Assembly: GCA_009602735.1 (NCBI GenBank)
Contig: WELA01002202.1
Coordinates: forward strand, 1-64,000
Length of the DNA stretch: 64,000 nt
Reading direction: 5' to 3'
Source of the DNA: Mesotaenium endlicherianum
Taxonomy: Eukaryota
Position numbers and translations under genes: made by a program. Below are positions 1 through 50,004 of this stretch, in pieces. Numbering within the stretch: the first letter of the stretch is position 1; each line of letters opens with the position of its first letter. The notes under the pieces were generated by a model. It had not been told where the DNA came from and did no database searches. It saw nothing but the letters and a program-made list of their open reading frames with translations.

Positions 1-3000
1 ATATTACTGTGCGAACTCCTGACCACGACGAGGAGATTATGATGCCCAACGGATTCTCCAACAAAACTCTTCCAAGAGGACGTACCTTTTAGCACTCACT
101 ATCAAATGTTTCAAGGATAGAGTAATATTCTCTCCCATGCAATTGGGCAAGTGCGACGTCATCCTAAGGACGCCTTGGTTGACCAAGCACAACCCCCAAG
201 TTGATTAGAGGGACGGTACCACCAAGGTCAAGAACGACATTACTTCAAGAATCATTATTTTGCGCGCGATCAAGAATATCCAGACCCAAGACATCAAGAA
301 GCCGGCACACGAGATGCTATTACCCGCCCAACTCAAGAGACTTGTGAGGAAGGGACACGAGCTTCTTTGACCTTGATCACGCCAAAAGACGTCAAGAATG
401 ACGTCAAAATTCAAGAAGGCAGCCCCATTCCCAAGGAGATACAAGAAGTCTTGAAGGACTACAAAGAAGTATTCTCCTCGGAATTGCTGAAGGGCCTACC
501 CCCCCAGAGATTCGTAGGCCACAAGATAGAGTTGGAGCCCGGAAGCAAGTCCATCTCTCGGCCTACGTTCAAGATGTCATACACGGAGCTAGACAAAAAC
601 AAGAAGCAAATCAAGGAGCTACTGGAGCATGGCTTCATTCGACCCAGCAAGTCGCCATTTGGAGCCTCGGTGCTATTTTTCAAGAAGAAGGATGGTACCT
701 TGAGGATGTGTGGGAACTATCGCACCCTCAACAAGATCACCATCAAGAATCAATACCTGCTACCGCGCATGGATGAGCTCATGGACCGGCTGGTTCGAGC
801 CAAGTACTTCTCGAAGGTGGATTTGAGAAGCGGCTACCACCAGATTCGCATCGCTGAACCTGACATAGAGGAGACAGCGTTCAGGACAAGATATGGACAT
901 TTTGAGTTCATGGTCTTGCCATTTGGACTCACCAACGCGCCAGCAACTTTCATGACTATGATGAACACCATATGTAAGCCCATGTTGGATAGATTTGTGG
1001 TGGTATTCATCGACGACATCCTTATCTACAGCAAGACCCTCGACAAGCATGCAAGACATTTGAAAGAAGTCCTCGAAGTATTGAAGCAAAACAAGCTATT
1101 TGCAAAGGAGTCAAAGTGCGAGTTTGCCAAACAAGAAGTGGAGTTCTTAGGTCTCCACGTGACTGCTGATGACATCAAGACGGACCCCAAGAAGACCACG
1201 GTGGTGGAGGAATGGCCAACCCCCACGACAAAGAAAGAACTCCAATCATTCTTGGGATTTGCCAATTGGTACAGGAGATGAATCCCGAGCTTCTCGCACA
1301 TAGCAACTTCCCTCGTGGATTTTCTCAAGAAGGACAAGCCATATGTTTGGACCAAAAAAGAGGAGGGAGCATTCCAACCACTGAAGCAAAGATTGACGAC
1401 ATCTGCGGTGCTCACACTTCCAAGTCCAAACCCAGATTGGCCCTTACACGTCGTCATCGATGCATCTTCCTATGCAATAGGAGCAATCTTGCTTCAAGAC
1501 CAAGGCAAGGGACTGTAGCCCATTGCCTACGAGTCAAGGAAGCTAAATTTAGCCGAGCAAAATTATACAACCACGGAGCGAGAGGCGTTGGCAATTATAC
1601 ATGCCTTCAAGGTTTGGCGCTGTAACGTTGAAGGACGCAAGGTGCTGATCACTACGGACCACGAGGCGTTGAAGCACCTCCAGACGCAGCCGTATCTCTC
1701 AAGGAGACAATCAAGATGGAGTAGATACTTGCAACAATACAATATCAAGATTTGGTACCAACCCGGGAAGACATATTCAGCCGACCCCCTTTCAAGACTA
1801 CAAGTGAACTTGATTACGACAACCTTGCATACGGATTTGGAGGCAAGATTTTCAGCCGCCTATAAAAGAGACCCGTACTACAAGAACGGAGAAGCAACCT
1901 TGGACCCATACAAGAAGCAAGAAGGCGATTTTTGGGTGAGGCAAGACACGGGCCAAAAATGTGTTCCTAATGATTTGGACCTCCGGCTCTTGCTTCTACA
2001 AGAAGCACACGACAACCCTCTTGGAGGACACTTTGGGATCCTAAAGACCACGGGCGTTCTAGCTAGGACTTTTTGCTGGCCAGGCATGTCTAAGCAAGTC
2101 AAGGAGTATTGCAGAAACTGTGACACATGCCAAAGAATCAAGCCATCATCACAAAAGGCGGGAGAACTTCTTCAACCACTACCAATTCTCGAGAGACAAT
2201 GGATAGATATCTTCATGGACCTCATTGTGGACTTGCCAGTGACACCACGAGGCCACAATGCAATATTAACAGTGATGGACAGACTTACCAAGATTGCTCA
2301 TTTCATCCCAACAACGAACAAGGTTACAGCACCCCAGTTAGCAAGACTTGTCTTTGACAACATCTTTTGACTCCATGGACTACCATCAAGAATTGTGTCG
2401 GATAGAAATCCAAGATTCACAAGCCATTTCTAGAAATACCTCTTCAAGACCTTGGGTACATCGCTGGATATGTCCAGTGCCTACTACCCGTAATCAAATG
2501 GACAAGCAGAGCGTATGAATTGTACTCTAAAGACCTCTCTAAAGGCCTACGTGTCTAGCTTGTAGCAAGATTGGGAAATGTACTTGGCCCCCTTGGACTT
2601 TGCCCACAACAACACGATGCAGGCCTCTACCCAAGAGTCCCCATTCTTCCTCAAGAGTGGCTTCCATCCAACCACGCCGCTGAGCTTCACGGCTGGCCAT
2701 GATTAAGTATGTGCAGTTGCAGATTTTTTGGAGACATTAGAAGCAACCCTTGCAGCAGCCAAGAAAGCTCTACAACACGCGCAAGAGTGGCAAACAGGTC
2801 TAGCAGAGAAATTACGTACTGAGTGGGTGACAACGTGTTACTATCATCCAGTAACATTTCCCTGAACAACAGGCTTGCCGACAGCAAGTTCTTTTCCAAG
2901 TATTTGGGACCCTTTAAGATTATCCAGCATGTCAACCATGTTGCTTTCAAGCTATAACTTCCCCAGACTATGCACATCAATTCCGTACTCCACGCCTCCC

Positions 3001-6496: not shown

Positions 6497-6897
6497 CTAG
6501 GTGTGCCGGGGGGGGGTATCATACCCTGACCTGGCCTCTTCTGGGGTCTCTTCACGTCTTGATCTTGTTGTTCCGGGAGGTGAGCTCCCAAAAATCTGGC
6601 TGTGAGTGGCGATTCTCACAGATGATGGGGTGCCATGCGTATCGTCTTCCACTCCTGGTAGCGGTGCTGCTTGCTGAGGCGCTTGATCCCTCATGGGTGT
6701 ATCCCCTCTTTCCAGAGATGCTTGTAATTCATTGGTCCGATTATCAATCCGGTCCAATAGATCCTGACATCTCATCAGTTCTGCCATCCTATCTCCCCTT
6801 TATGCTCTGTCTATAGCGGCTTCCGCTGCGTCTCTTTGCACCCAGTATTCTTCTTGTTGCTGATGTGCCGTTCTGATAGCCCTATGATCAGATGTTG
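6497..6897 (-). pseudogene. C-terminal continuation of the E1 DNMT polyprotein
   Basis: Removing element C (TSD TGTTG) joins ...GINVVPT to SDHRAIRTAHQQQEEYWVQRDAAEAAIDRA*RGDR-MAELMRCQ..., in the same frame as ORF 6497-6787. Confidence 0.75.
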
Positions 6898-7948
6898 TGT
6901 AATGAATCAGTTCATTATTTATTTAATTAATTGCATGCATAAATGCAACACTAAGTATGTATTATGTCAATATACTCACAGGCGCGAGTTTATTAAAATG
7001 AATGTATGTCGATGTAATGCGAGTTTACTTACTTTGTCAAAAAGGTCAGCAGGATGACTTTTGTATCATAGTGTAGTTTGCTGACTTTGTTGAAAAGATT
7101 AGCAGGATGACTTTTGTATCATAGTATACTTTGCTGAGATTTATATATCAGTTATATATAGGATGTAATATCAGCAGGATGACACATACTAAGCTCGCTG
7201 GATATTAGTCAGTATACTTAGCTTCAGTACGCTGAGGGTAGATATATTCATTCAGATTATTATTTGTAGATTGGCACATGTGACCGTAGTATACTGAAAG
7301 TCACAAGGTCGACTGAGATTCGGTAAATCGATGTCCTACCAGTGTGGTTAACTCCTGGGTAGGCGGAGCCGTCGTCAGTCAACTTAACAATTAGGACTTT
7401 AGTCAACCGACCAATTAATATGGTCGTTATACCTAGATCCGTGGGTCCCAACTTAACAGGTTTCCCACAAAACGGCGCACCTTGCGCCGTGGTCAACCAG
7501 GTGGTCACTAGGTACATAGCAGGCTGGGATCTCGTGGTCCCTCATTCTGGACAGTAGGCTTTACAGTCGGATTTCTACTTGCAAGTCATGTGTGCACTTT
7601 TGGGTTCGTTCTAATGACCATCCTTCACGGAAATAGACATGGCTGCTTTGTTTGCGCTCCAAATGGAGCGAACTAGAACTTTTCGGAAAGGTCTTGTCAA
7701 GATGCATCTGTTGCCGTTCAGTTTGCTCAGTTTGGAGCACTATTGACAGAGTTATGCCCTCTGACAGTTTGGGGTCACACAGCGGACAGATTCCATGGTT
7801 TTGCACCTAAGTCAGTGGGATGTGTTTTAGCTACTTTATGGTCATCTGAATGAGAGCGCCTTTGCTATTCAGTCCCCTGACGTTGTGTATGTGCTTGTAC
7901 ATGCTTGTATGCCTGGTAGGCAAGAGGTCATGAGATTCTAAAGGAGAC

Positions 7949-8666
7949 TGAAATGAATCGACTTACCAAATAGGCGATTAACAATTAATAAAGATCTTTA
8001 TATCAGCAAGTAATCTTATGGTATTTCCGTTAACTAGTTAAACGGCAAAGGACAATACACTAGCAGGGAATAATACTCGTAAGTCAAATGCGAGTAAACT
8101 AGCATCAATGATGCAAATCAGTAAACTCATACATAAGCAAGGTTAGAAGACAGTGCGTATCAATGGCTTCTCGCCTTGGATTCAGATCTCTCTCAGTAAG
8201 CTGTACAAGAGAGTTGGCCTCGTTTCCGAATGCCGAACTCGAGAGCAATGCCTAGCATATGTACATGGAATGAGTTTACTGTTCAACGGTCAGTGCGATG
8301 GCACCGCCTACCCGGGAGTTAACCACGTTGGTAGGACCTCGGTTAACCAAATCCACCGCCATCTCCCATCATCCCGAATAGCCATCCATCATAGGGATGT
8401 CATCTGGCTATTCATCTAGCATATCGCACTTAGATGCATATCAAGGCAGTTCGCTGCTACCGAGTACGGAAGTCAGCTGGCTGTCAAAGAATGTGTCAGC
8501 AAGCTGACTTAAGTTGACTTCAGCCTGCTGCTTTCGGCTGAGTCATTAAACTGATAATTATGTAAAGTCCAGCAGACTGACTATTAACTAAAGTTCAGCA
8601 GGCTGAACTTAATTAACTATTATATTTAAATGAATATTATATCCACTAATATACTGATTCATTACA
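7949..8666 (-). repeat. Element A 3' LTR
   Basis: Direct repeat of 16022-16741, with about 17 substitutions and 2 single-base indels by manual count. Confidence 0.97.
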
Positions 8667-8667
8667 A

Positions 8668-8702
8668 TCCCTCCAACTTAACTTGTTGTCGCCTCGACAA
8701 CA
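8668..8702 (-). promoter_or_regulatory. Polypurine tract with upstream 8-bp hairpin (element A)
   Basis: Minus strand reads TGTTGTCG-AGG-CGACAACA AG TTAAGTTGGAGGGA T|TGTAATG. The same arrangement occurs in C (20479-20514) and A' (48370-48405). Confidence 0.85.
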
Positions 8703-8779
8703 TTAAACTGCAGAAATTTTAAATAAGGGAACTGAACCTGACCAGCCTCCCTTACTGACTGCCTCTTCAGCGTGTCACC

Positions 8780-10456
8780 TTAAGGGGTTGTTCCTGGGGC
8801 TTCAGGATCAGGAGACGGAGATCTGGACCTAGATCTGGACAGCCCTCTAGGTCTGTCAGCTGGCCTTCTAAAGAACCCTGTTTGCTCTAAAGTTGGCCCT
8901 CGAGGAGAACGGAGGATGGTGGCCTGCTCTTCAACCACTTGGGTGTTGATTCCCACATAGACAGGCATTCCAGTAGGATGCTGAAATACATTGGCTAGAG
9001 GTACATGCCCCTGAGCGGAGGGGGAGGCTGGCATACCTCTGGCCCACCCGCGTGTCCCTCTTCTGGCACCCCTGTCCTCTGGGGATTTCTGTCTGTGTCT
9101 GCTGCCCAGTACAGTCAGATCAGCTTCTTCCCCTGCTTGGGCAGGTGGGCTGGGGGAGCGAGCGCGGGGTCCAGTTGTCGCCATAACGGGGATCACATTC
9201 CAAACACCTGATCGTGGTTCTTTAAGAAGCGCCCCTGCCTGTCCCTGGGTATCCTGAGTACCTGCTGCTGATGCTTCTCCTCTGCCTTGTTCTTCTTCCT
9301 CATCCTCCTCATCCTCCTCCTCGGAGAGAGTAGGGGTCTCGTCCACTAAGTCGTCCTGCTCCCTAGTAGACATGGAGTAGTCTACCGACCTCCCTTTCTT
9401 AGGGCGCGCTGGAGGTTGCTTGGCCTTCAGCCTACTGATATCTATCCGGCCTGCATTCTTTGCCCATTTGACAAAGGCATGCTTTCCCTTAGAGAAGTAC
9501 TCTCTTCCCCTCCTCCTATGTTCCTTGGTCTCTGCATTCATATTGCTCAGGCATCCATTCAGCCTGGGGTCCCAAGGGGCAATGTGAGGTGGTAGGATGA
9601 GATAGCCGTCTAGGCCATAGTGGAAGTCATCCGGTTGGGCTCGGTCACACTCCTGCTTCTTATTTGTGACGGTCATCCACCTCCAGTCTGTTGGCTGCTG
9701 GTAGTACTGGGGTCCGTGCTCAGCCTTCCTCAGTTTACACGGGAACCAGTGGGGAGAGAACATCTGCTGTCCTGCTTCCCTGGCCAAGTACTCCCAGCTC
9801 CTTCTCTCAACTTCATTGTAAGCTGGCAGGAGTGTGAGGTAGAATACCGTATCCTTAAAGCTATCGGGCCGCATGCTCACCATCCGGATGAGTCTCTGAT
9901 CTCCCACTATTCCCGGTATGGGGACCGGCTTGTCCTCTGAATCATCTGCGAGATACCGGGCCTGCTCTGCTGTATAGCCCACCATCTTAGCATAATCTTC
10001 GTAAAGGACCACGCCGGTGTGTGTCTCGATGTACCTGTCCAGTGCTGTAGCTCCTTCCTTCTGTAGCAGTGTTGTCTGTTCCAGCCTGTTGATCTCCTGG
10101 GCTGCCAGCAATGCTTCCTTCAGGTTATCGAAGTTTTGGCCACCCACCACAGTATACCTGTAAGTGGCCAAGCTCTTCTGTCTGTCCGCTTCAATCTTTT
10201 TTCTTTTCTCCTCTTCTGCCGCTGCCGCTTCTTCTTGCTGTTTCTTCTGTCTCTCCTCCTCAGCCTTCCTGAGGTTTTCCGCTTCCTGATCCTTCTTCCT
10301 CTGTGCCTCTTCTGCCGCCTCTTGTTGCTTGCGGACCCTTTCTTGTTCTCTCCTGGTGAGGGACGTCGCCGCCAGCTCCTTCTGGTATTGCTCCATTGTC
10401 CTCCTGGCTTCTTCTGCCTTGCGCTTTCTGTCCTCCTTTTGTGTGGTGGGCGCCAT
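8780..10456 (-). CDS. Retrotransposon ORF3, ~558 aa, unknown function (charged coiled-coil N-terminus, conserved globular core, acidic and RS-rich C-terminus)
   Basis: Uninterrupted ORF between pol and the PPT. Homologous remnants at 34581-36136 (-) and ~47030-48294 (+). The ATG at 10456 follows a putative splice acceptor. Confidence 0.85.
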   Translation of the reverse strand: MAPTTQKEDRKRKAEEARRTMEQYQKELAATSLTRREQERVRKQQEAAEEAQRKKDQEAENLRKAEEERQKKQQEEAAAAEEEKRKKIEADRQKSLATYRYTVVGGQNFDNLKEALLAAQEINRLEQTTLLQKEGATALDRYIETHTGVVLYEDYAKMVGYTAEQARYLADDSEDKPVPIPGIVGDQRLIRMVSMRPDSFKDTVFYLTLLPAYNEVERRSWEYLAREAGQQMFSPHWFPCKLRKAEHGPQYYQQPTDWRWMTVTNKKQECDRAQPDDFHYGLDGYLILPPHIAPWDPRLNGCLSNMNAETKEHRRRGREYFSKGKHAFVKWAKNAGRIDISRLKAKQPPARPKKGRSVDYSMSTREQDDLVDETPTLSEEEDEEDEEEEQGRGEASAAGTQDTQGQAGALLKEPRSGVWNVIPVMATTGPRARSPSPPAQAGEEADLTVLGSRHRQKSPEDRGARRGTRGWARGMPASPSAQGHVPLANVFQHPTGMPVYVGINTQVVEEQATILRSPRGPTLEQTGFFRRPADRPRGLSRSRSRSPSPDPEAPGTTP

Positions 10457-10723
10457 CCTGCACATGTAACCAGGGCACAAGTTAGTAGGATATGGACCTT
10501 TGTCATAGGGATTGCAGGAAGTATGTTAGTATTTAGTATAGTGGCTTCGCTGCTGTTTACCTTACAGGATGATTGCTAAAAGTTGACGTAGTTGCGATGC
10601 GCTACACATAAACGTATGAGTGTGTTTTTATCGCTCTCGCTCACTAACTGTCATATATTTTCCCCTCCAACTTAAATGGAGACAGGACCGCCTGTCACCT
10701 TCCCGTGTCAACTGAAATGACAG

Positions 10724-13700
10724 TTATGGAGGGACTCCAGCGGCCCGAAGGTGGAACCGTGTCAACGCCCCTTTGGCATTGGTCAAGTGGTCCTTAAACT
10801 CCCAAGTGTCCCCAGAGGCATCGTAACCCTTCCATCGAATGAGGTATTTCATGACATATTTAGACGATCGACGGACCGAGCGAGCGTCTAAAATCTCATC
10901 GACCTCATATTCCTCAGGGTCGCCGTCCCGGACAGCGGGGACCGGTCCCGGTTGGACAGGGAACCGACCTGTGAACAGTGTATCACCTTTGATGTACGGT
11001 TCCAGGAAGGAGACATTAAAGACCGGGTGCCCCTTGTATTCAGCTGACATGTTCAGTTTGTAAGCATTCTGACCGACACGACGGACCACCGAATATGGAC
11101 CGACCCAGACAGGGCCAAGCTTTTTCTTGACCACACCAGGGAGGTACAGGTGCTGAGAATGCAGTTTGACTAAATCCCCCTTGGAAAATGTCAGTTCCCG
11201 ACGGTGTTGATTAGCGTATTTTTGTTGGTTTTCTTGGGCCGTGTGCAAGTTTCGTTGGACTTCTGACAGGGTGTCAGCAAACTCCTGAGTTAACTGGAGG
11301 GAGACCGGGTTGTCAATCCCTTCAGGGTGAGTTAAAGATTCCCCTAGCACATCTAGAGGAGACTTAGGGACTCTACCCAGGCTGAGTTCAAAAGGAGTTT
11401 TGCCCGTTGACGCGTGCACCGCACTGTTGACCGCAAACTGAATTTGAGGCAACAGGTCATCCCAATTATCTTGTTTTTGGTTAATATATGCTCTCAGCAC
11501 CTCCTGCAGAACTCGGTTAGTTCTTTCAGTCTGCCCATCAGTCTGAGGGTGGTTTGCTGTGCTGAGCAGCTGTTTGACTCCCATTAACCCCATTAAAGCT
11601 CTCCAGAACTTAGAGGTGAATTTTGAGTCTCTGTCTGAGATGATATTAGAAGGGAGCCCATGTTGGCATACTACATGGTTGTAAAACTGTCTCGCTGTTT
11701 CGAGTGCAGTCACTTTGACAGTTGTGGGGATAAAAATGACCATTTTTGTCAGTTTATCCACGACTACCAGTATTGAATCATGCCCGTTGGCAGTTCTTGG
11801 TAGTGAGACCACCCAGTCCATGGATATAGTTTCCCAGCGTCCCGCTGGGATGGGTAGCGGTTGCAAGAGACCTCCGGGTGGTGTGTGCCGAGACTTATTT
11901 CTCTGACACTGGTCACAGGACTTGACATATTTCAAGACCTCCCGGGGTAACCCCTCCCAATGATAATGTTTTGCCAGTTTGCCAACAGTTTTGGCCTGCC
12001 CCAAATGTCCACCCAGGAGACTGTCATGAGCTTGACTCAGTAAGAGAGACCTTATTTCCAAATTATTAGGAATGACCAGCTTCAGCCTGCCTGAAGTGGT
12101 TTCAGTCACCCAGACCCCTCCCTTGAGCTTATACCCGAGTGCAGTAGCACGACACACACCAGTAGTGGGGCTGGGCTCAAATGTTGGGTCAGAAAGGTAG
12201 GCTTTCCTAAGTTGTTCAAGGAAGGACTTTTTCACCTTTAGTGAAGTGAGTGCACACAGGACTTTATCTACAGCATGCTGACTAAAGTTCCTTTCTTGCA
12301 AGTCAGGTCTTCTAGAGAGTGCATCAGCAGGATTCAACTTCCCTGGTTTGTAGTCGATCTGGACTTGGAACTGCTCCAGCATCTGGCTCCAGCGGTTCTC
12401 CCTCCTCGACAGCTTGGACTTCTTCTGAAAGTGGGTCAGAGCTAGATGATCTGTAATCACCTTAAAAGCTTTACCATGTAAGTATGCTCTCCACTGTTTG
12501 AGTACATGAATGATAGCTAGCAGCTCTTTATCATGCACTGAGTAATTAATCTCCGCTGGATTAAATTTCATAGACTCATACAACACAGGATGCCACTCCT
12601 GCCGTACCTTACCATCCTTTGTGGTTTTGTCAGCAGGCTGCAACAAAATAGCACCCATGGCAAAATCAGAGGCATCAGTAACCACCTGCACCGGTTTGCT
12701 GGGGTCATACACGGCTAGCACTGGGGCAGAACAAAGGGCATCTTTAAGGGTCTGGAAGGCAGCCTGCTGCTCTTCCCCCCACACATACCCGATGTCTTTC
12801 TTAGTAAGGTCAGTCAGTTTACTGGCCTTTGTGGAATAATTCTCAATAAATCTCCTATAGTAGTTAGCCAACCCGAGGAAGGATCTAACTTCAGAGACAG
12901 ACTGTGGTACTGGCCAGTCCCTTATGGTCTGGACTTTCTTAGGATCCACACTGATGCCCTCTTTACTGACAACGTGGCCTAAGAATTCAATACTTTCCTT
13001 AAAGAAATCACACTTGCTCATTTTAGCATACAAGTGATTTTTCCGCAGAGTGTCCAGCACTTTCTTTAAGTGTTCAGTGTGCTGAGCTTCATCTTTAGAG
13101 AAAATTAAAATATCATCCAGGAAAACTTGCACAAACTTATCCAAATAAGGTCTGAAAATGTCATTCATAGCACCCATAAAGGTAGCAGGAGCATTAGTCA
13201 GTCCAAATGGCATCACGTTGAACTCATAGTGTCCATAACGTGTGCGGAAAGCAGTCTTGTGTTCATCCCCCTCAGCAATTCTGATTTGATGATAACCACT
13301 CTTGAGATCTATCTTACTGAACACCTTAGCGCCAGACAGGGTATCAAGCAAGTCCTCGATTCTGGGTAAAGCATACTTGTTCTTTACTGTAATTCTGTTC
13401 AGGGCTCTGTAATCCACACACATCCGCATACTGCCATCCTTTTTCTTAACAAATAGGATAGGTGCGCCGTACGGTGATTTACTGGGAGAAATGTAACCAT
13501 TTTCCTCCAGCTCTGCAATCTGTGTTTTCAACTCCTCGCTCTCCAAATAAGACAAGCCATAAGTGCGTTGCCAGGGTGGCTGGCTACCAGGTAATAGATC
13601 AATCCTATGATCTACTTCCCTTTTAGGGGGTAGTCCTGGAGGCATGTTAAACACATCAGTGTACTGAGCAACAATTTTTGCAGCAGTAGGGTGCTCCGGA

Positions 13701-14533
13701 GGGCTTACCTTTTTCTCAACCACTTCTTCAGGTTGAGGAGGTACCTCTCTTAGCAGCAGACAGAACATTCTGTCTTCCTTCTGGTTCCAGCTTTTGACGA
13801 ACTCCATTGCATTCAGCAACTTGCATCCTTCTGGAAGCCTCTTCTTTTCCTTCATTTGCCATCCACACAGGACAAGAGGAAGAGCACTGGTGGGTGCCAA
13901 GTCAGTCTGCCCATCACTGGCTCCTCTCACTTTAACTGTACCTCTGCTCCAACACACTTCAGCTTGATGTCTATTAAGCCAGGACCTGCCTAGCACGAGA
14001 TCATAAAAGCCAGTGTTGAGTACCTCAAATGTAAGCGTTTCAGTTAGAACTGCAATGCCAGAACCTAACTGGACCTCAATAGGCTTGGTTATAACTCCTC
14101 CCGGGATACTTGAGGCATCTCCAAGGAATATTTTTCTATTCCCTTGGGTGACAGTAGGCAGCCTTAGCCGCTTAACTAAGTCCTTGTGAATAAAAGTATG
14201 TGACGCCCCTCCGTCAACAAATGCCCTCACCTTCCTACCTGCAATCATGCAATGCAGTAGGATAGGGGGGACTGTCTTTTCCTGACTTTCGCATTGTTCT
14301 CCTGACGTAGCAAAGAAATGTTGGACATCAGGTGGAACAAGAGCATCCAGAGTGTGCACTCTCTGGACGTCTATATTACTGATGGTCTCCTTTATCTGTT
14401 TGTCAGGCATGCATAGTGAATCCAGTTCAGCAGGACCCATAATACCTGCTACGAGGGCAGCTAGTGACGACTCACTATCTCTAGCATCCTCACAGTCAGT
14501 AGACTGGATTACTGACTGTTGCTGTCTTTTAAA
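10724..14533 (-). CDS. pol: Pol polyprotein (protease, RT, RNase H, integrase, chromodomain), probably entered by -1 frameshift
   Basis: 1238-aa ORF from the ATG at 14440; the frame is open back through the slippery site. Motifs [43 protein letters not shown] and [20 protein letters not shown]. Confidence 0.97.
14492..14533 (-). promoter_or_regulatory. -1 programmed ribosomal frameshift signal (U UUA AAA + 7-nt spacer + 10-bp hairpin)
   Basis: Heptamer at 14527-14533 is in gag phase. Stem ACAGTCAGTA/TACTGACTGT at 14492-14519. Pol is in the -1 frame. Confidence 0.8.
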
Positions 14534-15987
14534 GGCTGGTCTTTTCTCTCGACCTTAGGCAGGTGCTTGACCGGACACTGTTCTCTGTAGTGGCCTTTCT
14601 GCTGACAATGGTAGCAAGTAGATTTTGCTGAGGCTGGTCTCGGCTTAGTCCTACCACCACCCCTTCCATAGCCACCTCGAGAGGGACCACCTCTACCTCT
14701 AGACTGAATAGCATTGTACTCATACTCATATTCATCACCCTGATTATCCTCAGCCTGGTCTCCTTCAACTGCATTGTAGGAACCGTGGGGCTTTTTGACA
14801 ATCTTAGACACCAAAGCGTTACTCTGGCGCTTGTGATTGAACTGCTGCTGATCCCAGGCGTCAGCATCCTGGATCAAGTCAGCCAGTTTCTCATACTTTT
14901 TCTCAGCAAAATGACCAGAGACCTCGGATTTCAAGCCATACCTGAAGTATGCTATCCTATACCGTTCTGGCAAATCAGGCTGCTTCATCATGTTCTCTTG
15001 GAACTTTTGAGCAAACTCAGCAACTGAAGTGGTCTGCTTCAGTGTCAGGGAGATCATCGCATAGATAGCTTTCTCCTGCTGGTTGATGACATCAAACTTC
15101 TCATGCAACTTCTCGACAAACTCTACCCACGTAGGGTCACCGAGTTGCCGAGCCTTACGCTCTTCCTTCCAGTAAAGCCACCAGTCTGCGGCACTGCCTT
15201 TCAGTAGCGCACCGGTGTGCCTGACCTTCTCGTAATCTTGCAGTTCTGGGTAGTTCTCCAGCCACTGCTCAACATCCGCGAGAAACTTGATCAGGTAATA
15301 TTTTCTGTTTCCCTCAGGATCATAGTCCTGGGGAGGTTTCGGCTTGGGCTTACTAGGCCCTCGGCCACCACCACTAGTGGTGTGAGACCCCAGTTGGTCT
15401 CTGTCCCGGAGTAGGGACATTATGATTCTTTTGTCCTCCTGCTGGGACTGATACATGGTCGCCATTTGCGACTGCATCTGAACGAACAATGCTCCCAAGT
15501 CTACATTTTGGGGTGGTAGATTAGCAAATGCAGCAGCAGCATTGGCATCTACTCGCTGAGTAGTGTCCTCAACAATCCCTCTTGCTCCTGCAGCAGCAAT
15601 TCCTGCCGCATTCAGCCGGTCACGTATTTGACCTAGGGGTACATTGAGTTGTACGGCAGGAGGTGGGTTCAGAACATTGGCCCTTGATGCCATAAGTTCT
15701 TCAACAGTGCGCTCGTCAGCTGGCTGTCCTTCCCTCCTTTGTATATCTTCAGCGGCCTTTGCTACTTGTTCAGCTTCTAGTCTGGCTATCTCCTCCTCAG
15801 CTTGCTGAGCTGCGACTGAGGCAATAGCAGCTGCCTCATCTGCAGCCTCCCTAGCTGCAGTATCCGCTACTGCTTCCGAATAGGTACGGTTTCCCGCTAC
15901 ATGGCTTTCCGCCTGGTTTTCGACATTCTCGTTATCCTGGTTCTCCATGTCTCGGGAGTTGCTAGTTTGAGACCTTGTCCTTACCAT
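14509..15987 (-). CDS. gag: Gag polyprotein, 492 aa
   Basis: [28 protein letters not shown], an RGG-rich segment and a CX2CX4HX4C knuckle ([14 protein letters not shown]). Confidence 0.95.
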
Positions 15988-16008
15988 ACAAAGAAGACTG
16001 TGATAACT

Positions 16009-16020
16009 GCTCCGATACCA
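16009..16020 (-). promoter_or_regulatory. Primer-binding site (initiator tRNA-Met type) of element A
   Basis: TGGTATCGGAGC, one base after the LTR end. Confidence 0.9.
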
Positions 16021-16021
16021 C

Positions 16022-16741
16022 TGAAATGAATCGACTTACCAAATAGGCGATTAACAATTAATAAAGATCTTTATATCAGCAAGTAATCTTTATGGTATTT
16101 TCCGTTAACTGGTTAAACGGCAAAGGACAACACACTAGCAGTGAATAATACTCGTAAGTCAAATGCGAGTAAACTAGCATCAATAATGCAAATCAGTAAA
16201 CTCATACATAAGCAAGGTTAGAAGACAGTGCGTATCAATGGCTTCTCGCCTTGGATTCAGATCTCTCTCAGTAAGCTGTACAAGAGAGTTGGCCTCGTTT
16301 CCGAATGCCGAACTCGAGAGCAATGCCTAGCATATGTACATGGAATGAGTTTACTGTTCAACGGTCAGTGCGATGGCACTGCCTACCCGGGAGTTAACCA
16401 CGTTGGGAGGACCTCGGTTAACCAAATCCACCGCCATCTCCCATCATCCCGAATAGCCATCCATCATGGGGATGTCATCTGGCCATTCATCTAGCATGTC
16501 GTACTTAGATGCATATCAAGGCAGGTCGCTGCTACCGAGCACGGAAGTCAGCTGGCTGTCAAAGAATGTGTCAGCAAGCTGACTTAAGTTGACTTCAGCC
16601 TGCTGCTTTTGGCCGAGTCATTAAACTGATAATTATGTAAAGTCCAGCAGACTGACTATTAACTAAACTTCAGCAGGCTGAACTTCATTAACTATTAGAT
16701 TTAAATGAATATTATATCCACTAATATACTGATTCATTACA
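16022..16741 (-). repeat. Element A 5' LTR
   Basis: Direct repeat of 7949-8666; adjacent to the PBS. Confidence 0.97.
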
Positions 16742-29070: not shown

Positions 29071-29082
29071 CCTGACAATGCC

Positions 29083-33367: not shown

Positions 33368-34455
33368 CAACGTCGGAAGACGAGTCTCGTCGGATCTCCG
33401 CCAACGGTGAGAATCCGTTTAGCGAGCGATTCTCTGCACTTGATTTGGGCAGAACGCGTGACGCTTGGATGAGAGTAAGTGATTGCTGGTCATCTTTTGA
33501 GATGGCTAGCGATGAAAGGGATGAGAATCCTAAGTTTAAGTTGATTACAAAGTATTTTAATGAACAAACTGACGATAGTCTCACTTGCTAAGAGTTTGAT
33601 GAGATCTATTGGGGGACTTCTTTGAGAAAATCCGAAAGGATGCCTTATACACACAATCTGTGGCATTCTTATGTCTGGTTCACTACTTGTATAGGAATGC
33701 CTTGCTACTCTATCGTCAATTCCGCAAGGATGAGGACCTTACCCAAGAATGGGCCTTTGAAGAGCAAAAAAAAGGCAAGGCATTCAGAAATCCAAAAAAA
33801 GGTTACTAAAGCAAACACAATCGTTTGTCTTCAAGAATGGCAGTGCTTGCTGCATCTGTGGAGAGCGTAGACTTGACTGCGTTGACACGAGAAGTAGCCG
33901 ATACATTGCAGCAACTAATTGATGGCCAATGGAGGGCCGCTGCACGCTTGATCCGTGAAAGAGTTACAAGAATTGTGTGCAGATTTTTTTGAAAGAATTG
34001 CGAATGCTCAAAATTTGACATGCAGAGCACCATTTAATGGTCAGCATGGCGATAGCGCCACCACTGAAGCCAATCATGTGGAAGTATTGGCCGATTGCCG
34101 TAAGGGTATGGAAGCTGGAAATGACCACCTTGATCCTTGGCATTACCTGCGTCATTTTTTTAAGTTGCTGTAGGAACGCTTCCCAGAGAATCGCAGTCTC
34201 AAAGTGCTTTTCTACGTGCATTTTGTTCGTTGGAAGAACAAAACAGTTTTGGAGGTCAACTCCACATTCGTAGATCTTGCTAAAAAAGCAGGTATGTATG
34301 AGCTCATGATTGTGGCTGAAAAATTTCTGTTGTGCTTGGGGAAGGAAGCAGATCAAGAAGTCAAGCCACACCTCTTTGCAAAACGCGAAATTGACTGGGA
34401 CATCGACGAGGCTGCTAAAATAGCACATAATGTCCAGGAAGGTGAAGTCTGGTAC
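33368..34455 (+). pseudogene. Element E2: second, inverted gag remnant of the E (DNMT-bearing) family
   Basis: FRKDEDLTQEWAFEEQK, DSATTEANH..LADCRKGMEAGNDHLD and VAEKFLLCLG..EVKPHLFAK..IDWDIDEAAKIA match E1 gag. Confidence 0.9.
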
Positions 34456-34580
34456 GTGAGGGACTTGTTTTGGGATAGTGTCCTTTCTTCGTACAATCCA
34501 AAGATTACCGTACGGTCGTACCATCGACGAGTTTTGCACCCTGCGGGATTTGAACCCTCGTCTCTTGGACACGATTGCAT

Positions 34581-37500
34581 ACACAGTTTGCAAGTTAATA
34601 GTAGCTGCACGCTCTTGCTCAATTTGCAAGCTGACAAGAACAAGCACAAGATCCCCAGAAGAGTGCTGCATGACATGGGCCAAGGGCACATAACCCTCGT
34701 GGGAGGGTGATGCTGGTGTCCCTCTGGCTGTCTGCTTGGCAACCCTCCTGGTAGCCTTTTCTGCCTGAGTATCAGCCCCCATGGGTGGGGTTTCCTTTGC
34801 TGCTGCTCCCCAGCCAAGTGATGTCCTCATTCCCAGCTGACTCCCTGCTGGTCTCCTCTAACTGCTTCAAGGCCCTCTTGGCCACAGACAGTCCATTCTT
34901 TTGCTGCGTAGGAGATCTTGCAGAAGTCTGGGCCCTTGCAAGACTGTCCCTATGTCCTGTTCCTCTTCAAACTCACCTTGCTCCTCAGAAACTACTGGGG
35001 TTGACTTTGTCATTCTGTCCAGCTAGACCCTAGATAGAGAGTAGACAACTCATCTCCCCCTTCCAGCCTTAGATGGTGGCTATCGCGTCCTGTCTGTGCT
35101 AAGGTTGTTTGTCCCTTGCTTGCCTGCCCATTTGACTAAAGCATGCTTGCCCCTTAGAGAAAGAGTCCCGAGCTCTGGTCCCCTCCTCCTTCATGTCTTC
35201 ATTAATATGCATTTATAGCCCATCCAGTCTGGGGTCCCAGGTTGCAATATGAGGAGGTAGGGAGATGAAGTCATCCAATGCAGGGTCGAAGTTGTCTTCT
35301 ACAGCCCTGTCATTTTGTTGGTCCTCAATGGTCATGGTCATCCAGCGCCAGTCCGTAGGCTGCTTGACAAAAGCAGGGTCTCCTCTCTTCTGTGTACAGG
35401 GGTACCAATGGGCTAGGAACAGTTGTTGATTGGTCTCCCTGGCTAAAAATTCCCAGCTCCTCCTCTCCACCTCAATATACGGAGGCTTAAACCTGTGGTA
35501 GGATGTTACATCCCTGAAGCTATCCGATAGCATTCGAATCATCTTGATGACTCAATGGGATCCTACTATCCCTGGTACTGGCACTAGTGGGTCCTTAGGA
35601 AGTATGGTCAGGTTCTTGGCTTCCTTGGCAGGATACTCCACCATCCTGGTATAGTCATCATACAGGACAAGTCCAGTCTGAATACCAATACACTTGTCCA
35701 CAAATTCCACTCCATCCCTTTGCAGGATCGCTTTCTGTGTTGTTACTCTGCTCTCCTGGGCATAATTCAGTGCCTCCTGCAAACGACCAAAGCTCTTACC
35801 CAGGACCGTATATCGATAGCTCTCACTCTACTTCCGCTATTCCTCTTCTGACTTCTGTTGCCTTTCTCCTTCAGCCTTCCTATCCTCCTCAGCTTTTTTG
35901 ATTCTGGCCTCGTCATCTTTTGTGTCCTCCTTAACCTGCCTGAGTCTGTCTTTCTATGCTTTCCTGGCTATGTCCTCCTCTTCCTGCTTCTTCTAATCCT
36001 CTCGCTTAAGTCGTAGGCGCTCCGTCTCGCGTGCCGATATGGAAGTTGCTTCAATATCATCCCGAAATTGCTCATAATGTTACAGCGCCTTCGCCGTCTT
36101 TCTCTTCTTCTTGAGTTTGTTTTTTTACTTGGTCATCCGGCTCACACATACCACAACTTAGTTAGTATAATAGTAGAGTATGAACGATGGGGCAGAGAGT
36201 AATAATAGAGGTAGAACGTAGTTATACTGGCATACTGATTCCAATATACCTTGTGGGAGGAGTGAGCGAAAGTGGTAAACTGGAGAAAGAGGTGTTTATA
36301 TGAGTGTAACACCATGAGTGAGTGTGAGCGCAGTTGAGTGTGAGAAATGTATATGTAATGATGGGTTCCTCAATCCTGAAACACTGCCACACTCTCTCCA
36401 ACTTAACCTAAGGTGGGCTGCCTGTCACATATGTCACTTAATTGGCACTTTATTGTCACATTCCCCTCCAGCTTATAGGGAGACAGGACCTCCTACCGCC
36501 TGTCCATGTCAATTGAAATTACAGTTAAGGTAATTTACCAACTTTTTGAAGATAGAAACGTCCCAGCGCACCTTTTCCGTTGACCAAATGGTCCTTAAAT
36601 TTCCATGTGTCCCCAGATACATCATACCCCTTCCATCTGACCAGGTACTTCATGACATATTTAGATGATTGACGGACAGAGCTTTTAAAATCTCATCCAC
36701 TTTATATAATTTAGGGTCCCCATCTCGGATGGCGGGGACCGGTCCCGATTGGACAGGCAACCAACCTGTGAACAGGGTGTCACCCTTAATGTACGGTTCA
36801 AGGAACGAGACACTATATTCCGCTGACATGTTCAATTTGTAAGTATTTTGACCGACTCGGTGTACCACCGAATATGGACCGACGCAAATTTGGCCAAGCT
36901 TTGTCTTGACCACGCCAAGAAGGTACAGGTATTGAGAATGCAATTTGACCAAATCTTCCTTTGAAAATGTTAATTATCGACGGTGTTGATTAGCGTATTT
37001 TTGCTGTGTCTCTTGTGCTTGATACAAGTTTTGTTAGACTTATGACAGAGTATCAACAAACTCCTGGTTAACTGGAGAGACATCGGATTGTCAATCCCCA
37101 CAGATTGAGTCAGGGATTCTCCTAGTACATCTAAGGGAGATTTAGGAACTACCCAAACAGAGTTCATAAGGAGTCTTGCTCGTTGAGGCATGAACAACGC
37201 TGTTGACCGCAAACTGAATCTATGGCAACAAGTCATCCCAATTATCCTGCTTTAATTTGATATAGGCTCTCAGCACCTCCTGAAGAACTTTGTTCATCCT
37301 CTCAGTTTGCCCATCAGTCTTGGGGTGGTTTGCTGTGCTGAGTAGCTATTTGACTCCTAATAACCCCATTTTAGCTCTCCATAACTTAGAGGTGAATATT
37401 AAGTTTCTGCCTGAGATAGTGTTAGCATAGTATTAGCCCGTGTTGGCATAATACATTGTTGTAGAACTGTCTTGCACTTTCGAGAGCATTTACCTTGACA

Positions 37501-44136: not shown

Positions 44137-47100
44137 CTATGAGTTTAATGTGATGCCATTTGGACTGACAAATGGTCCTGCAACCTTCATGGGTGCTATA
44201 AGGACATCTTCAGGCCTTACTTAGATAAGTTTGTGCAAGTCTTCTTGGATGATATTTTATTTTTCTCGAAAGATGAAGCTAAGCATGTTGAGCATTTATA
44301 GACAGTCATGGACACTCTGAGAAAGAATCAGTTATATGCTAAAGTGAACAAATGTGATTTCTTTAAAATAAAGTATTGATTTCTTGGGCCACGTTGTCAG
44401 TAAGGAAGGCATCAGTGTGGATCCTAAGAAAGCCCAACCCATAAGGGACTGGCCACAGTCTGTCTCAAAAGTTAGATCCTTCCTCGGGTTGGCTAATTAC
44501 TATAAGAGATTTTTTGAGAGATATTCTACAAAGGCCAATAAACTGACTGATCTTACTAAGAAGAACATAGGATATGTGTGAGGGGAAGAGCAGCAAGCAG
44601 CCTTCTAGACCCTTATAGATGCTCTCCGTTCTGCCCCAATCTTAGCTGTGTATGACCCCAGCAAACCTGTGCAGGTGATTACTTATGCTTTTGACTTTGC
44701 TATGGGTGCTATTTTGTTGCAGTCTGCTGACAAAAGCACAAAGGATGGTAACGTGAAGCAGGAGTGGCACCCTGTGCTGTAAGAGTCTATGAAATTCAAT
44801 CCAGTTGAGATTAATTATTATGTGCATGATAAAGAGCTATTGGCAATCATTCATGTTCTCAAACAGTGGAGAGCTTACTTACATGGCAAAGCTTTTAAGG
44901 TGAATATAAATCACCTAGCGCTGACTCACTTCTAAAAGAAGTTCAGGCTGTCGAGGAGGGAGAACCGCTGGAGCCAGATGCTGGAGCAGATAGACTACAA
45001 ACCAGGGAAGTTGAAGCCTGCTGATGACTTGCAAGAAAGGAGCTTTAGTCAGCATGGTGTAGATAAAGTCCTCTGTGCACTCACTTTATTAAAAGTCAAA
45101 AAGACCTTCCTTGAACAACTTAGGAAAGCCTACCTTTCTGACCCAACATTTCAGCCCAGCCCCATTGATGGTGTGTTACCTGCTAATACACTCGAATATA
45201 GGCTAAAGGGCGGGGTCTAGGTAAATGAGACCACTTCAGGATGGATGAAGTTGGTAATTCCTAATAACTTGGAACTAAGGAATTTATTAGTGAGTTAAGC
45301 TCATGACGGTGTACTGGGTGGATATTTGGGGCAGGCCAAAATTGTTGGCAAATTGGCAAAACTTTATCACTGGGAAGGGTTGCCTCGGGAGGCCTTGAAA
45401 TATGTTAAGTCCTGTGATCAGTGTCAGAAAAACAAGTGTAGACACACCCCACCCGGGGGGCTATTACAACCATTACCCATCCCAGCTGGATCATGGGAAA
45501 CAATATCCATGGATTGGGTAGTAACACTACCAAGACCTGCCAATGGACATGATTCTATACTGGTAGTAGTGGATAAATTGACAAAAATGGTCATTTTCAT
45601 CCCCACCACTGTCAAAGAACTGCACTCAAAATTGCGAGACAGTTCTACAATCATGTAATATGCCAGCATGAGCTACCCTCTAATATTATCTCGGACAGGG
45701 ACTCAAAGTTTACCTCTAAATTTTGGAGAGCTTTAATGGGGTTAATGGGAGTCAAACAGCTGCTTAGCACAGCAAACCACCCTCAGACTGATGGGCGGAC
45801 TGAAAGAACTAATCAAATTCTGCAAGAGGTGGTGAGAGCATATATTAATCAAAAACAAGACAATTGGGATAACCTGTTGCCTCAAATTCAATTTGCGGTC
45901 AACAGTGCGGTGCATGCGTCAACAGGAAAGACTTCTTTTGAACTCAATCTCGGTAGAGTCCCTAATTCTCCTTCAGATGTGCTAGGGGAGTCTTTAATTC
46001 ACCCGGAGGGGATTTCCCACCCGGTGTCTCTCCAATTAACTCCGGAGTTTGCTGACACCCTGTCAAAAGTCCAACAAAGTTGGCACAAAGCCCAAGAAAA
46101 TCAACAAGAATATGCGAATCAACACCGTCGGGAGCTGACATTTACTATGGGCAATTTAGTCAAACTGCATTCTCAACATCTGTACCTGCCTGGTGTGGTC
46201 AAGAAAAAGCTTGGTCCAATTTGGGTCGGTCCATATTCGGTGGTGCGCCGTGTCAATCATAATGCTTACAAACTGAACATGTCAGCGGACTACAAGGGTC
46301 ACCCGGTCTTTAATGTGTCTTTCCTGGAACCATACATCGAAGGTGACACACTGTTCACAGGTCGGTTACCTGTCCAATCAGGACTGATCCCCGCTGTCCG
46401 GGATGGTGATCCTGAGGAATGTGAGGCTGATGAGATTTTAGAAGCTTGGTCTGTCCGTCGATCATCTAAACATGTCATGAAATATCTGGTTAGATGAAAG
46501 GGTGACGATGCCTCTGGGGACATCTGGGAAGTTAAGGACCATTTGACCAATGCCAAAGGGGCCTTGAAATGGTTTTATCTTTGGGAGGCTGGGACACCTC
46601 CCTAACTGTCATTTCAGTTGACATGGGCAGGTGACAGGAGGTCCTGTCTCCATTTAAGTTGGAGGGGAAATGTGGCCAAATGAGGCCAAAAGTGACAATT
46701 AGTGACAGAAAGTGACAATAGTTGACAGTAAGTGACAGTTTTGAGAGGCACCCCAGTGACAATTTGGTCAGGCAGCCCACCTTAAACATTAAGTTGGAGG
46801 GAGTAGGATAAACATCTCGGGAACTAGCTGATTGCCGTTACATATCCATCCTCCACACTCAACTGCGCTCACACTCACTTTTCTCTCAAGCACACTCACA
46901 CTTTCAATTTACTTACACCAAGTATTGCATGCTACAACTCCCACTATTACGTTCTTACCTGTCAAGGTACTCAATCCGGTGCATAATATCATGACTACAC
47001 TAATTCAATTGTGGTATGAATGAGCAGGAGGACTCAAAAGTTTGAACTCAAGAGGAAAAGAAGGGCGGTTGAGGCGCTGGCGAAGTACAAGAAGTTCCGT

Positions 47101-50004
47101 AGCGACATCGAATCATCCTCCATCTCTTCTCGAGAATCAGATAGGTGATTCTGAAACGGTGCCAATACCTGGGAATTGGGGCACAGACAGGGTCATCGGG
47201 TTGATCCCTATGCATACAGACAGCTTCGAGGATACCACTTCCCACAACCGGTTCAAGGCCATGTATAACGAGGTGGAGAGAAGGAGCTAGGATTTCTTGG
47301 CAAGGGAGACCAATCAGTTGGATTTCTCAGGTCACTGGTACCCCTGTACTTTGAAGAGGACTGATCCTGCTTTCTTTCTGCAGCCCACTGACTGGCGCTG
47401 GATGACCATCACCATCAAGGACCAGCAAAATGACAGAGCTGAGGAAGACGATTTCCTGGCAGACTTGCAGGTGAAGATAGTGCTACCACCTCACATTGCA
47501 GCATGGGACCCAAGACTGGATGGAGTCAGGGACTGCATGAGTCAGGAGACACAGGAGGATAGGACTAGGGCTAGAGATTCCTTCTCTAAGGGGAAACATG
47601 CTTATGCCAAATGGGCAAGTAAACAAGGGGAGAAAGACCTATATGCTATCAGGACCCAGCAACCCCCATCGGCATCCAGAAGGGGGAAGTTAGTGGGATA
47701 CTCTTTTTTTCAAAAATGGTTGGAGATGACCAGAGAGACTCCAGAAGTCTCAGAGGAACAGGAGGACAAAGAGGAGGAAGGCGCCGGAGAGGAGTCTAGT
47801 CCTGCTGAGGCACATACCCCCGCTACATCCCCCACTCTACAGCAGGTTGGAAGGGCCTTTGCACAGGCAACCCTGCAGCAGCTTGGGGATACCAGCCCAC
47901 CCATAGATCCAGATCTTCAGTGGCTGGGAAGTTTCAGCAGGACGAGTCCCACCCCAGGAGGTGAAACTCAGTCAGACAGAGCAGACAGAAGGGCTGCCAA
48001 GGAAGCAGCCAGAGGGTAGCCAGCATCCCCCTCTCATAGAGCGCATGTACCCTTAGCCCATGTCATGCAGCACCCCTCTGGTATGCCAGTGTATGTCCCT
48101 GTCAGTTTGAGAGCTGCACAAGAGAGAGCGGTCTCCATCAACTTGTAGACAGTGCAAGAGCAGGCTGCTCAGTTGCTGCGTTCACCTCTTGGTTCACCCT
48201 GGTATGAGCCCCCAGGTTTCAGGAGGCCATCAGATAGAAGAAGGAGATCCAGTTCCGGGTCTCGCTCCCCAGACGATAGAGCCTCTGGTACTTAGTTTGC
48301 TGTTCTTTGTCTTAGTATCAGTCAGTTGTGTTGCATGTGGGTTACTTTGTTGTAAATAATAGTAGGAAGTGTTGTTGAGTCGACAACAATTTAAGTTGGA
48401 GGAACTGTAATAAATTAGTCTATTGGATAGACATAGTATTTATTTTGATATATTAGTTAAACAAGTTCAGCTTGTTGAGCTTTAGTTAATATTAAGTTTG
48501 CTGAATATTTAATACTTAGTTAAATGACTCCGAGAGCAGCAGGCTGAAGTCAATTAGGTCAACTTGTTGACTTGGGTCAGCTTGCTGACACATTCTTTGA
48601 TAGTCAGCTAGTTGCCGTACTCGGCAGCAGCGAACTGCCTAGCTATGCATCTAAGTGTGGTGTGCTAGATGAGTGGCCAGATGACACCCTTAAGGTGGAT
48701 GGCGATTTGGGATGATGGGAGATGGCTGTGAATTTGGTAAGCCGAGGTCCTACCAACGTGGTTAACTCCCGGGTAGGCGATGCCATCGCACTTGCCGTTG
48801 AACAATAAACTCATTCCATGTACATATGCTAGGTTTTGCTCTCGAGTTCGGCATTTGAAAACAAGGCCAACTCTCTTGTACTGCATACTGAGAGATATCT
48901 GAATCCAAGGCGAGAAGCCATTGATATGCACTGTCTTTTAGCCTTCCTTATGTATGAGTTTACTGATTGCATTATTGATGCTAGTTTACTTGCATTTGAC
49001 TTGCGAGTATTGTTCACTGCTAGTGTGTTGTCTTTTGCTGTTTAATAAGTTAATAGAAAGTACCACAACGATTACTCGCTAATATGAAGATCTTTAGTAA
49101 TTGTTAATCGCCTATTGGTAAGTTGATTCATTTCAGCTGTGCTCAAAGCTGCGCAGCAATCTTCTCAACTCCAAATGGCTAAATTACAGGAGTTGTGAAC
49201 AAACTAGCGCAAAGCATGGCAGCACAAGCTTATGAGGCAAGGGGGCTGATTGCATACTACTACTCCTACTATTTTTCTCTAAGATCACCTTCCTTCTTTC
49301 CGTAATCAGGCAATTTGAACACAAATTGTTAAAGCGGCGGATTCAATGCACACAGTCACACTTGGAGGCTCGGTGGTTGTGTTGTTTTTTTGGCAGGCCC
49401 GGTCTGCTATGCCACATTCTATTGCACTTTTAGGTATTTGCCCTTTTAACATCTGCACGTCGGATTTTGTTGGTACAGTATCTACCCACAAATCCGTCCT
49501 GTTAGGATGAGTGAATGTCCTCCCCCACTGCGGCCATGGCTAATTGCTGCACTACCATGCCTCTACAAGCCATATTCCTCCAACCTTTGTGCACCTATAT
49601 TAGCGGAGGCCACACCTTCCAATCTTTAACCCAAGACGTCTCCATACCACTCTCCTCTTTGCCCCATTGCATTCATACGTGCACTTCGACCATTGAACTA
49701 ACGCACTATAGGAGCTACTGAGACTGACTAAGACCAACTCACAATCCACTAAGGGCCCTTGACTTAATTGACTTTGTGTCCTTATATATCCCTCAGCTCC
49801 AATTATAACACTAGTTTTACCTAGTCTACCTATCTTGCAGACCAATATAGCGATGCTGAAGTGGTGAACATTGTTAAGAAAAGGTGTCCTCATTCAAAGG
49901 TACCTGAGGATCACAAGGTCTCGTAAGTGGGGATTGCAACCACCAAAAGGCTCTACATGTACCAGCGTGCAATATAGATGGCCAGATGAACAATTCTCAT
50001 CCGT

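Follow-up and report, generated by a model that had tools for sequence, protein, structure and literature searches.

Plant LTR retrotransposons carry thousands of extra open reading frames (ORFs) to which no function has been assigned, according to the available parts of two surveys (PMC6317226, PMC7264820). The locus described here raises the question of what one such frame does in an otherwise complete element, and why it differs so strongly between copies. Element A lies in a 64-kb stretch of Mesotaenium DNA (hereafter the window), in which nested LTR elements are followed by a GC-rich host gene; the host is a culturable zygnematophycean alga, belonging to the lineage sister to land plants, and the element is intact and young. 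Its third frame, ORF3, is placed between the stop of pol (10724) and the terminal polypurine tract (PPT; 8680-8667). The comparison of copies covered A and its relatives A' and A'' within the window, together with public sequencing runs.

Element A is a chromovirus of the Ty3/gypsy group by its domain order, TG...CA LTRs, primer binding site (PBS) and PPT (Table 1), and the 2.4% divergence of its LTRs marks it as young. The order is gag-PR-RT-RH-INT with a C-terminal chromodomain; RVT_1, RT_RNaseH, Integrase_H2C2, SH3_Tf2-1 and Chromo score above the Pfam cut-off in pol (Chromo 34.5 bits against 25.1), and the gag zinc knuckle scores slightly under its cut-off. The pol frame is open 5' of its own ATG and overlaps the end of gag in a different frame across U UUA AAA, so that a -1 frameshift is predicted, the slippage role of this heptamer being proposed by analogy with known slippery sites. 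The PBS is taken by us to be of the tRNA-Met type; no tRNA gene for comparison occurs in the window. A putative target-site duplication, for which 4-5 bp would be typical, reads as 5 bp with one mismatch or as 4 bp plus one extra base when compared with the uninterrupted LTR copy at 27775-27805. Two clades were considered, and a usual trait of each is lacking in A: Chlamyvir, because the gag and pol frames of A differ and overlap whereas 80% of members have a single-frame/single-stop layout, and Tcn1, because A has a tRNA-type PBS after the LTR whereas 83% of members are self-priming, although the overlapping frames agree with the prevailing layout of Tcn1. An RT-RH tree of 34 rows, built without REXdb references, places A on an unsupported polytomy (best identity 62%), and the best relatives of pol among the matches listed reach 48-58% over the region searched.

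Table 1. Features of element A, of ORF3 and of neighbouring sequences (positions in the window; residues for parts of the protein).
Feature	Position	Strand	Basis or remark
Element A, intact chromodomain Ty3/gypsy	7949-16741	-	
5' LTR of A (TG...CA)	16022..16741	-	97.4% identity to 3' LTR; K2P 0.024
TATA-like box, predicted, near LTR end	16070..16075	-	sole TATA-like match in LTR scan
5' splice donor G/GTAAGT, predicted, upstream of PBS	16034..16040	-	sequence
PBS	16009..16020	-	sequence
gag, 492 aa, intact	14509..15987	-	Ty3_capsid and Retrotrans_gag above cut-off
-1 frameshift heptamer U UUA AAA, predicted	14527..14533	-	in gag/pol overlap
pol (PR-RT-RH-INT-chromodomain), 1238 aa from first ATG, intact	10724..14440	-	Pfam
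Hairpin and internal PPT copy, left cassette edge	10662..10696	-	common to A, A', A''
Putative exchangeable cassette (spacer and ORF3 with 3' untranslated part)	8703..10658	-	identity profile
Branch point TACTAAC and acceptor CAG, predicted	10458..10487	-	one base before second ATG
ORF3, 561 aa	8780..10465	-	558 aa from second ATG at 10456
Terminal hairpin and PPT, right cassette edge	8667..8702	-	tract itself 8680-8667
3' LTR of A	7949..8666	-	pairwise LTR comparison
A' ORF3 homologue, decayed	34440..36140	-	tblastn E about 2e-74
A'' ORF3 homologue, decayed	47020..48295	+	tblastn E about 3e-74
ORF3 N-terminal part	residues 1-100		charged, helical, basic patch
ORF3 conserved core	residues about 100-345		normal hydrophobic content
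ORF3 acidic tract	residues 346-420		20 D+E
ORF3 second conserved block	residues about 465-505		
ORF3 C-terminal tail			RS/SP-rich; RS run; 11 SP/TP sites in protein
Element B	6897-20627 and 26851-28003	+	non-coding inside; A inserted into its 5' LTR
Insertion of 726 bases in A'' pol	41550-42276		probably solo LTR
Stop-free frame with GFPCQ motif and related blocks	28001-28942	-	
Protease-like and zinc-knuckle gag-like frames	29083-31082		beside the GFPCQ frame
Host D-isomer 2-hydroxyacid dehydrogenase gene	49374-52045	-	spliced, expressed

Several neighbours of A were recorded. Element B shares with family A the LTR ends, the PBS, both terminal and internal hairpin-PPT units and 210 bases left over from the gag/pol junction; its longest sense stop-free stretch is 89 codons, it holds no ORF3 match, and it is likely a non-autonomous partner of that family. 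It also has motifs of its own (GGTAAGT at 17015; TACTAAC at 17159, 17541 and 19833). The family of the 726-base insertion reaches RNA bin depths of 223,050, 12,095 and 272 in runs X17, X14 and X23, and its reads continue into a PBS, which indicates that an active relative exists elsewhere. The frame with the GFPCQ motif presumably resembles a C5 cytosine methyltransferase, and the region 28001-31082 is possibly a DIRS-type element carrying one. The last exon of the host gene comes as close as about 250 bases to the 3' LTR of A''; its exon 50443-50655 matches a jgi/Mesen1 record at 100% identity and the other records listed at 66-79%.

An earlier note on this DNA, made from the letters alone, had reported a 558-aa frame with homologues in A' and A''. 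Both statements hold, the frame being three residues longer from its first ATG, and a homologue stands at the same place in all three pol-bearing copies of the family in the window. The sequence blocks it had named as shared are likewise all present, some of them damaged: the W of EVERRSW is a stop in A'', which has further stops and a deletion of residues about 42-176, and A' is frameshifted within FSKGKHA, with 12 stops in 534 aligned codons. The annotated frame is the best of six against both copies (177 against at most 88 bits; 225 against at most 137 bits), and differences in the core peak at third codon positions (0.48-0.54 against 0.29-0.34). Over the whole frame pN/pS is 0.46 (0.39-0.54) and 0.50 (0.45-0.57) against the two relatives, and 0.38-0.43 in the core, the upper bootstrap bounds for whole and core lying at 0.49-0.57; these values err on the cautious side, silent sites being close to saturation and the relatives having decayed after insertion, whereas the protein-guided alignment, which favours similar residues, biases them the other way. 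To judge from the decayed homologues and pN/pS of 0.38-0.50, ORF3 is under purifying selection, and it is almost certainly a functional gene. That it is instead a captured passenger without present function would suit its lack of reads in three poly(A) runs (see below) and the persistence of the non-coding element B, which does without it, but is scarcely credible beside 561 open codons in a young copy and a dN/dS that stays far below 1 where silent divergence is saturated; selection largely refutes it.

The protein is also more diverged than pol, as the note had judged by eye (42-47% against 77-81% amino-acid identity in pairs that include A). Its description as fast-evolving is mostly wrong, since silent sites are equally diverged and the ORF3 core, with an omega of 0.09-0.22, does not exceed pol (0.18-0.29); dN/dS near 1, which the note had said would count against its reading, was not found, the values in this comparison with pol being well below 1. 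Exchange of an old cassette accounts best for the surplus divergence. At the nucleotide level A and A'' are 85-92% identical through pol to 10659 and 84-92% identical again from 8702, and the interval of about 2 kb between these points is 62-66% identical or unalignable. All three copies have a post-pol block, about 65 bases long, that ends with a hairpin and PPT copy, directly past which the alignment of A to A' and A'' collapses. At fourfold sites A and A'' differ by 0.59-0.75 in ORF3 and 0.09-0.26 in pol, and A' and A'' by 0.36 and 0.35, the ORF3 values being rough as each pair offers only 25-33 such sites. Site patterns group A with A'' in pol (162:74:49, 374 codons) and A' with A'' in the ORF3 core (55:51:76, 148 codons), a conflict with a Fisher p of about 1e-10 over codons common to the three copies. 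Contigs of run X4 depart from the reference at 10662 and 8706, which suggests a further relative with a different insert, and over 1475 bases of the cassette region they differ from A by 2 substitutions and 1 deletion; this run, which covers the whole element and not the host gene and could be RNA or DNA, was used for sequence only. On these comparisons A very probably received a distant ORF3 cassette by recombination, in an exchange between lineages.

A different explanation is that the cassette was never exchanged and mutates far faster than pol, for instance through different replication between PPT units. The diverged block does coincide with the interval between two PPT copies, and by NG86 ORF3 likewise shows the higher silent divergence for A' versus A'' (pS 0.67 against 0.48 in pol; omega 0.15 and 0.23), so that part of the excess is general; the 5' part of gag is another raised stretch (0.48-0.50 at fourfold sites). 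Faster mutation is nevertheless quite improbable, as A' and A'' differ equally in the two genes at fourfold sites, A alone is far from both, the closest pair changes, and the X4 contigs are nearly identical to A. The raised part of gag is its first 200 codons (15390-15987, minus strand) in A versus A'', against 0.16-0.29 at silent sites elsewhere in the gene, and is perhaps a second exchanged module. On another view, ORF3 variants would be competition or incompatibility factors between subfamilies, each acting on its own type so that old types persist, for which copy-number control in Ty1 is a model. At least two deeply diverged cassette types on similar pol backbones, and the additional type suggested by the X4 contigs, would agree with this; direct evidence is lacking and 3' modules are exchanged without such selection as well, which makes competition very unlikely.

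The edges of the cassette point to how it may have moved. A scan of the window for the PPT core gave 12 matches against about 1 expected, 10 of them within the internal regions of A, A', A'' and B or at their 3' ends and the other 2 in the LTRs of B, and all 7 first-internal or terminal matches have stems of 6-8 bp directly upstream. The non-coding element B has kept the internal hairpin-PPT, which suggests a role in cis for the internal tract, likely as a second site of plus-strand priming; it would also supply homology for template switching. Template switching at the common hairpin-PPT blocks during reverse transcription would, in all probability, be what swaps the cassette. A second internal PPT-like copy, without an upstream hairpin, occurs in the spacers of A'' (46790, plus) and A' (36405, minus) and is absent from A.

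Around the internal PPT the spacers of A, A'' and A' hold 4, 8 and 4 copies of TGACA against 0.3, 0.9 and 0.6 in shuffles. Such clustering in all three spacers, which travel together with ORF3, would be expected if ORF3 worked like VANC or a transactivator, expressed from an internal promoter in the spacer, binding short DNA motifs of its own family and countering methylation or boosting transcription; the targets of VANC are tandem motif arrays in non-coding parts, as far as the available text describes them (PMC5735166). The CpG depletion of the element (observed/expected 0.40 against 0.76 in the host gene region), which implies methylation pressure, and the acidic tract of ORF3 would also suit such a protein. 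Against a null of the best 5-mer, however, TGACA is significant only in A'' (p <0.001; 0.16 in A and 0.74 in A'), and it is identical across highly diverged cassettes, whereas the targets of VANC diverge. As no DNA-binding domain was found in ORF3 and the conserved splice motifs described below are left unexplained, a role of this kind is rather unlikely.

The protein itself offers compositional features and no recognisable relative. The best 19-residue Kyte-Doolittle window scores 0.73 and the first 25 windows score -1.0 or less; without a hydrophobic helix ORF3 is not Env-like, and the statement of the note that it has neither signal peptide nor transmembrane stretch is borne out. The N-terminal basic, NLS-like patch that the note had pointed to is present in all three copies, residues 310-362 include 17 K+R, and the RS tail, also seen in the note, is matched in A'' and unmatched in A'. 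A word-indexed homology search found no relative among 7,991 scored candidates (lengths 253-807 only), and phmmer with the 272-residue core against 1.84 billion representatives returned nothing at E 0.001; matches in Pfam were all below threshold, those in PHROGs had E 0.17 or worse, and PDB sequences gave none at E 10. Related loci numbered 0 of 29 among viral and 0 of 36 among prokaryote genomes. A known accessory domain of transposable elements, the other finding that the note had named as contrary, was thus not matched in Pfam or PDB searches, and its overall picture of a conserved, selected, non-Env accessory ORF without recognised domain is supported. Two AlphaFold runs gave no confident fold (pLDDT 34.1 and 33.8). 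Three leads were discarded: neighbours in the ESM Atlas forming a 130-aa cluster (0.83 and 0.91; 102 and 125 of 256 features shared) were judged noise; one metagenome match in 247 was put down to chance, its 21-residue match spanning a stop on a bacterial-looking contig; and the reading of conserved His/Cys residues as a deaminase or zinc site found no support. As the collections are poor in masked-repeat transposon ORFs, this blank does not confine the family to this alga. The core of ORF3, about 240 residues long, is a further orphan protein that every search and predictor has left unplaced.

Splice signals around the gene suggest how it might be expressed. In the 8.8-kb sense strand of A the motif GGTAAGT occurs only 18 bases before each LTR end, and the perfect donor is present in all four LTRs of A and A''. 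TACTAAC occurs only twice in the same strand, both times within 70 bases upstream of ORF3 (the second at 10531), and all three occurrences on the minus strand of the window are just upstream of ORF3 copies. In each of the three copies exactly 23 bases separate the branch-point-like heptamer from the point where CAG (in A and A'') or CCG (in A') ends, a spacing that is constant though the spacer of A is otherwise unalignable (background 7e-5 per base). The base after the acceptor position is G, followed by ATG, in A and A'; A' has no AG at the acceptor position and A'' no second ATG, both copies being decayed. On these motifs we lean slightly towards a spliced mRNA in which the LTR donor at 16040 is joined to the acceptor at 10457 and ORF3 is read from its second ATG. 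If the TATA-like box, which has a similar motif at the matching place in the A'' 5' LTR, served as promoter, no more than a few bases would be left for exon 1. A and A'' have an in-frame ATG upstream of the acceptor, which would suit an unspliced RNA, or one from an internal promoter, just as well, and no spliced ORF3 read was seen. Two further routes were rejected, namely read-through from pol, which is in the same frame yet separated from ORF3 by several stops, and a donor right after the gag ATG, which would meet the acceptor out of frame.

Coverage by RNA, which the note had proposed to check, differs between runs. In the poly(A) runs X22-X24, of which 6-12% of each was read at a threshold of 92%, depth is zero in all 6 bins over 8712-10535 in all three, and depth on pol is low and comes mostly from reads 90-99% alike. 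At least 0.71 of the words of 8700-10700 occur in 20 of the 24 runs listed, from 7 studies, none of them labelled as RNA. Runs X14 and X17 hold 0.77 and 0.73 of these words, a share that needs ORF3 itself but carries no strand or level and to which multi-copy family DNA could contribute. Both runs contain spliced RNA that lacks three host-gene introns and matches the window with 0 differences; in X14 there are intron-containing contigs as well. Next to no cover falls on the decayed A' ORF3 in either run, and relatives of the A''-type ORF3 appear at depth 13-16 in X14 and 2-4 in X17. Under some conditions ORF3 is probably transcribed.

A strong donor and acceptor would make the genomic RNA intron-containing and pose a problem of export or retention. 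As a tentative prediction, ORF3 may be a nuclear regulator of the unspliced RNA of its element, comparable to Rev and CERV. Splicing from the LTR donor to the ORF3 acceptor would remove the PBS, gag and pol; the protein would self-associate through its charged helix and bind element RNA through its basic stretches, and its RS/SP tail would contact splicing or export factors, so that unspliced genomic RNA could escape splicing or retention. Of the two nuclear roles that the note had offered as examples, anti-silencing and RNA handling, the sequence signals slightly favour the latter, in that the basic patch is kept in every copy and is joined by the K+R stretch, the RS run, the SP/TP sites and the lack of a hydrophobic helix. 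Against such a regulator stand the lack of a fold or homologue that would support RNA binding, the zero depth in the poly(A) runs, the RS tail unmatched in A' and a spacer folding unlike the Rev response element (z against shuffles +0.6, +0.1 and -1.2 in the spacers, -0.7 to -1.8 in the common post-pol block). Elsewhere in A, the 3' untranslated part (8660-8785, minus strand) folds with z -3.7, the terminal PPT being paired in a long stem; the value for A'' is -0.1. The cassette spacer lies within the predicted intron, so that protein and RNA target could be swapped together. The fuller proposal, a Rev-like regulator that evolved independently and is packaged with a splice acceptor and cognate target on a PPT-bounded cassette, the pairs being swapped as specificity modules, is speculative and on balance unlikely.

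The role of P6 in caulimoviruses provides the analogy for a cytoplasmic alternative, in which ORF3 would be a helper or Gag cofactor serving assembly sites, translation or suppression of RNA silencing. The position after pol, the long charged helix, the low-complexity linkers, the basic stretches and the lack of a membrane anchor are all compatible with such a helper, but the NLS-like patch in three copies and the RS/SP tail indicate the nucleus and the searches found no similarity, which makes a cytoplasmic role improbable.

Natural divergent ORF3 alleles on near-identical backbones, together with exact predictions (one splice junction, two recombination edges and a second priming site), make the function of a non-Env third ORF directly testable.

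Extra ORFs after pol form a known class, and the ORF3 protein family and cassette layout appear undescribed. As far as the available parts of the sources go, extra ORFs are listed for 3,372 Ty3/gypsy elements, in 314 groups of which most have no domain (Neumann et al. 2019, PMC6317226); Tekay (18% 3'F) is the one chromovirus lineage with 3' sense ORFs in the REXdb table, and Chlamyvir (44 elements), Tcn1, Reina, Galadriel and CRM have none of these (PMC6317226). Accessory roles have been suggested for the class (Vicient and Casacuberta 2020, PMC7264820). ORF3 resembles the aORF-3S or eORF-3'F type in position, orientation, retention in copies and lack of a known domain, and splicing is reported for some of these, e.g., Bagy2; the sense ORFs on record frequently resemble env and carry transmembrane segments, which ORF3 lacks (PMC7264820, PMC6317226, in part). 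That type is defined by at least 250 codons of sense orientation, lying between pol and the 3' LTR, and by presence in most copies with selection; ORF3 has 561 codons, occurs in all three copies of the window and shows pN/pS of 0.38-0.50. A swapped cassette bounded by two PPT units was not found in the available parts of these two papers, and a search for literature on Mesotaenium chromoviruses, or on Mesotaenium LTR retrotransposons with methylation and Ty3, returned none, its coverage leaving out most subscription papers; among the other literature listed, no title or opening of an abstract describes the ORF3 family.

Three systems invite closer comparison, each from partly available text. 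VANC of the VANDAL DNA transposons is, like ORF3, element-encoded, with conserved and variable parts and motif clusters nearby (Hosaka et al. 2017, PMC5735166), but it belongs to a DNA transposon system, no homology to ORF3 was found, and TGACA is the same across ORF3 types. Tekay's 5' aORF proteins in sunflower and grasses are likewise chromovirus accessory proteins with predicted NLS, helices and disorder, although they lie 5' of gag, in seed plants (PMC11728184), and no similarity to ORF3 was found. CERV of Cer1 in C. elegans, an accessory protein made from a spliced mRNA that exports genomic RNA, has G, M and Cys-loop domains, to which ORF3 showed no sequence similarity in any search, and folding of the ORF3 spacer against shuffles brought out no structured response element of the Rev type. 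Like ORF3, however, CERV and HIV-1 Rev are non-Env accessory proteins with proline-directed S/T sites and an unspliced genomic RNA to export, and they are made from spliced mRNA, as is predicted for ORF3 (PMC10309623).
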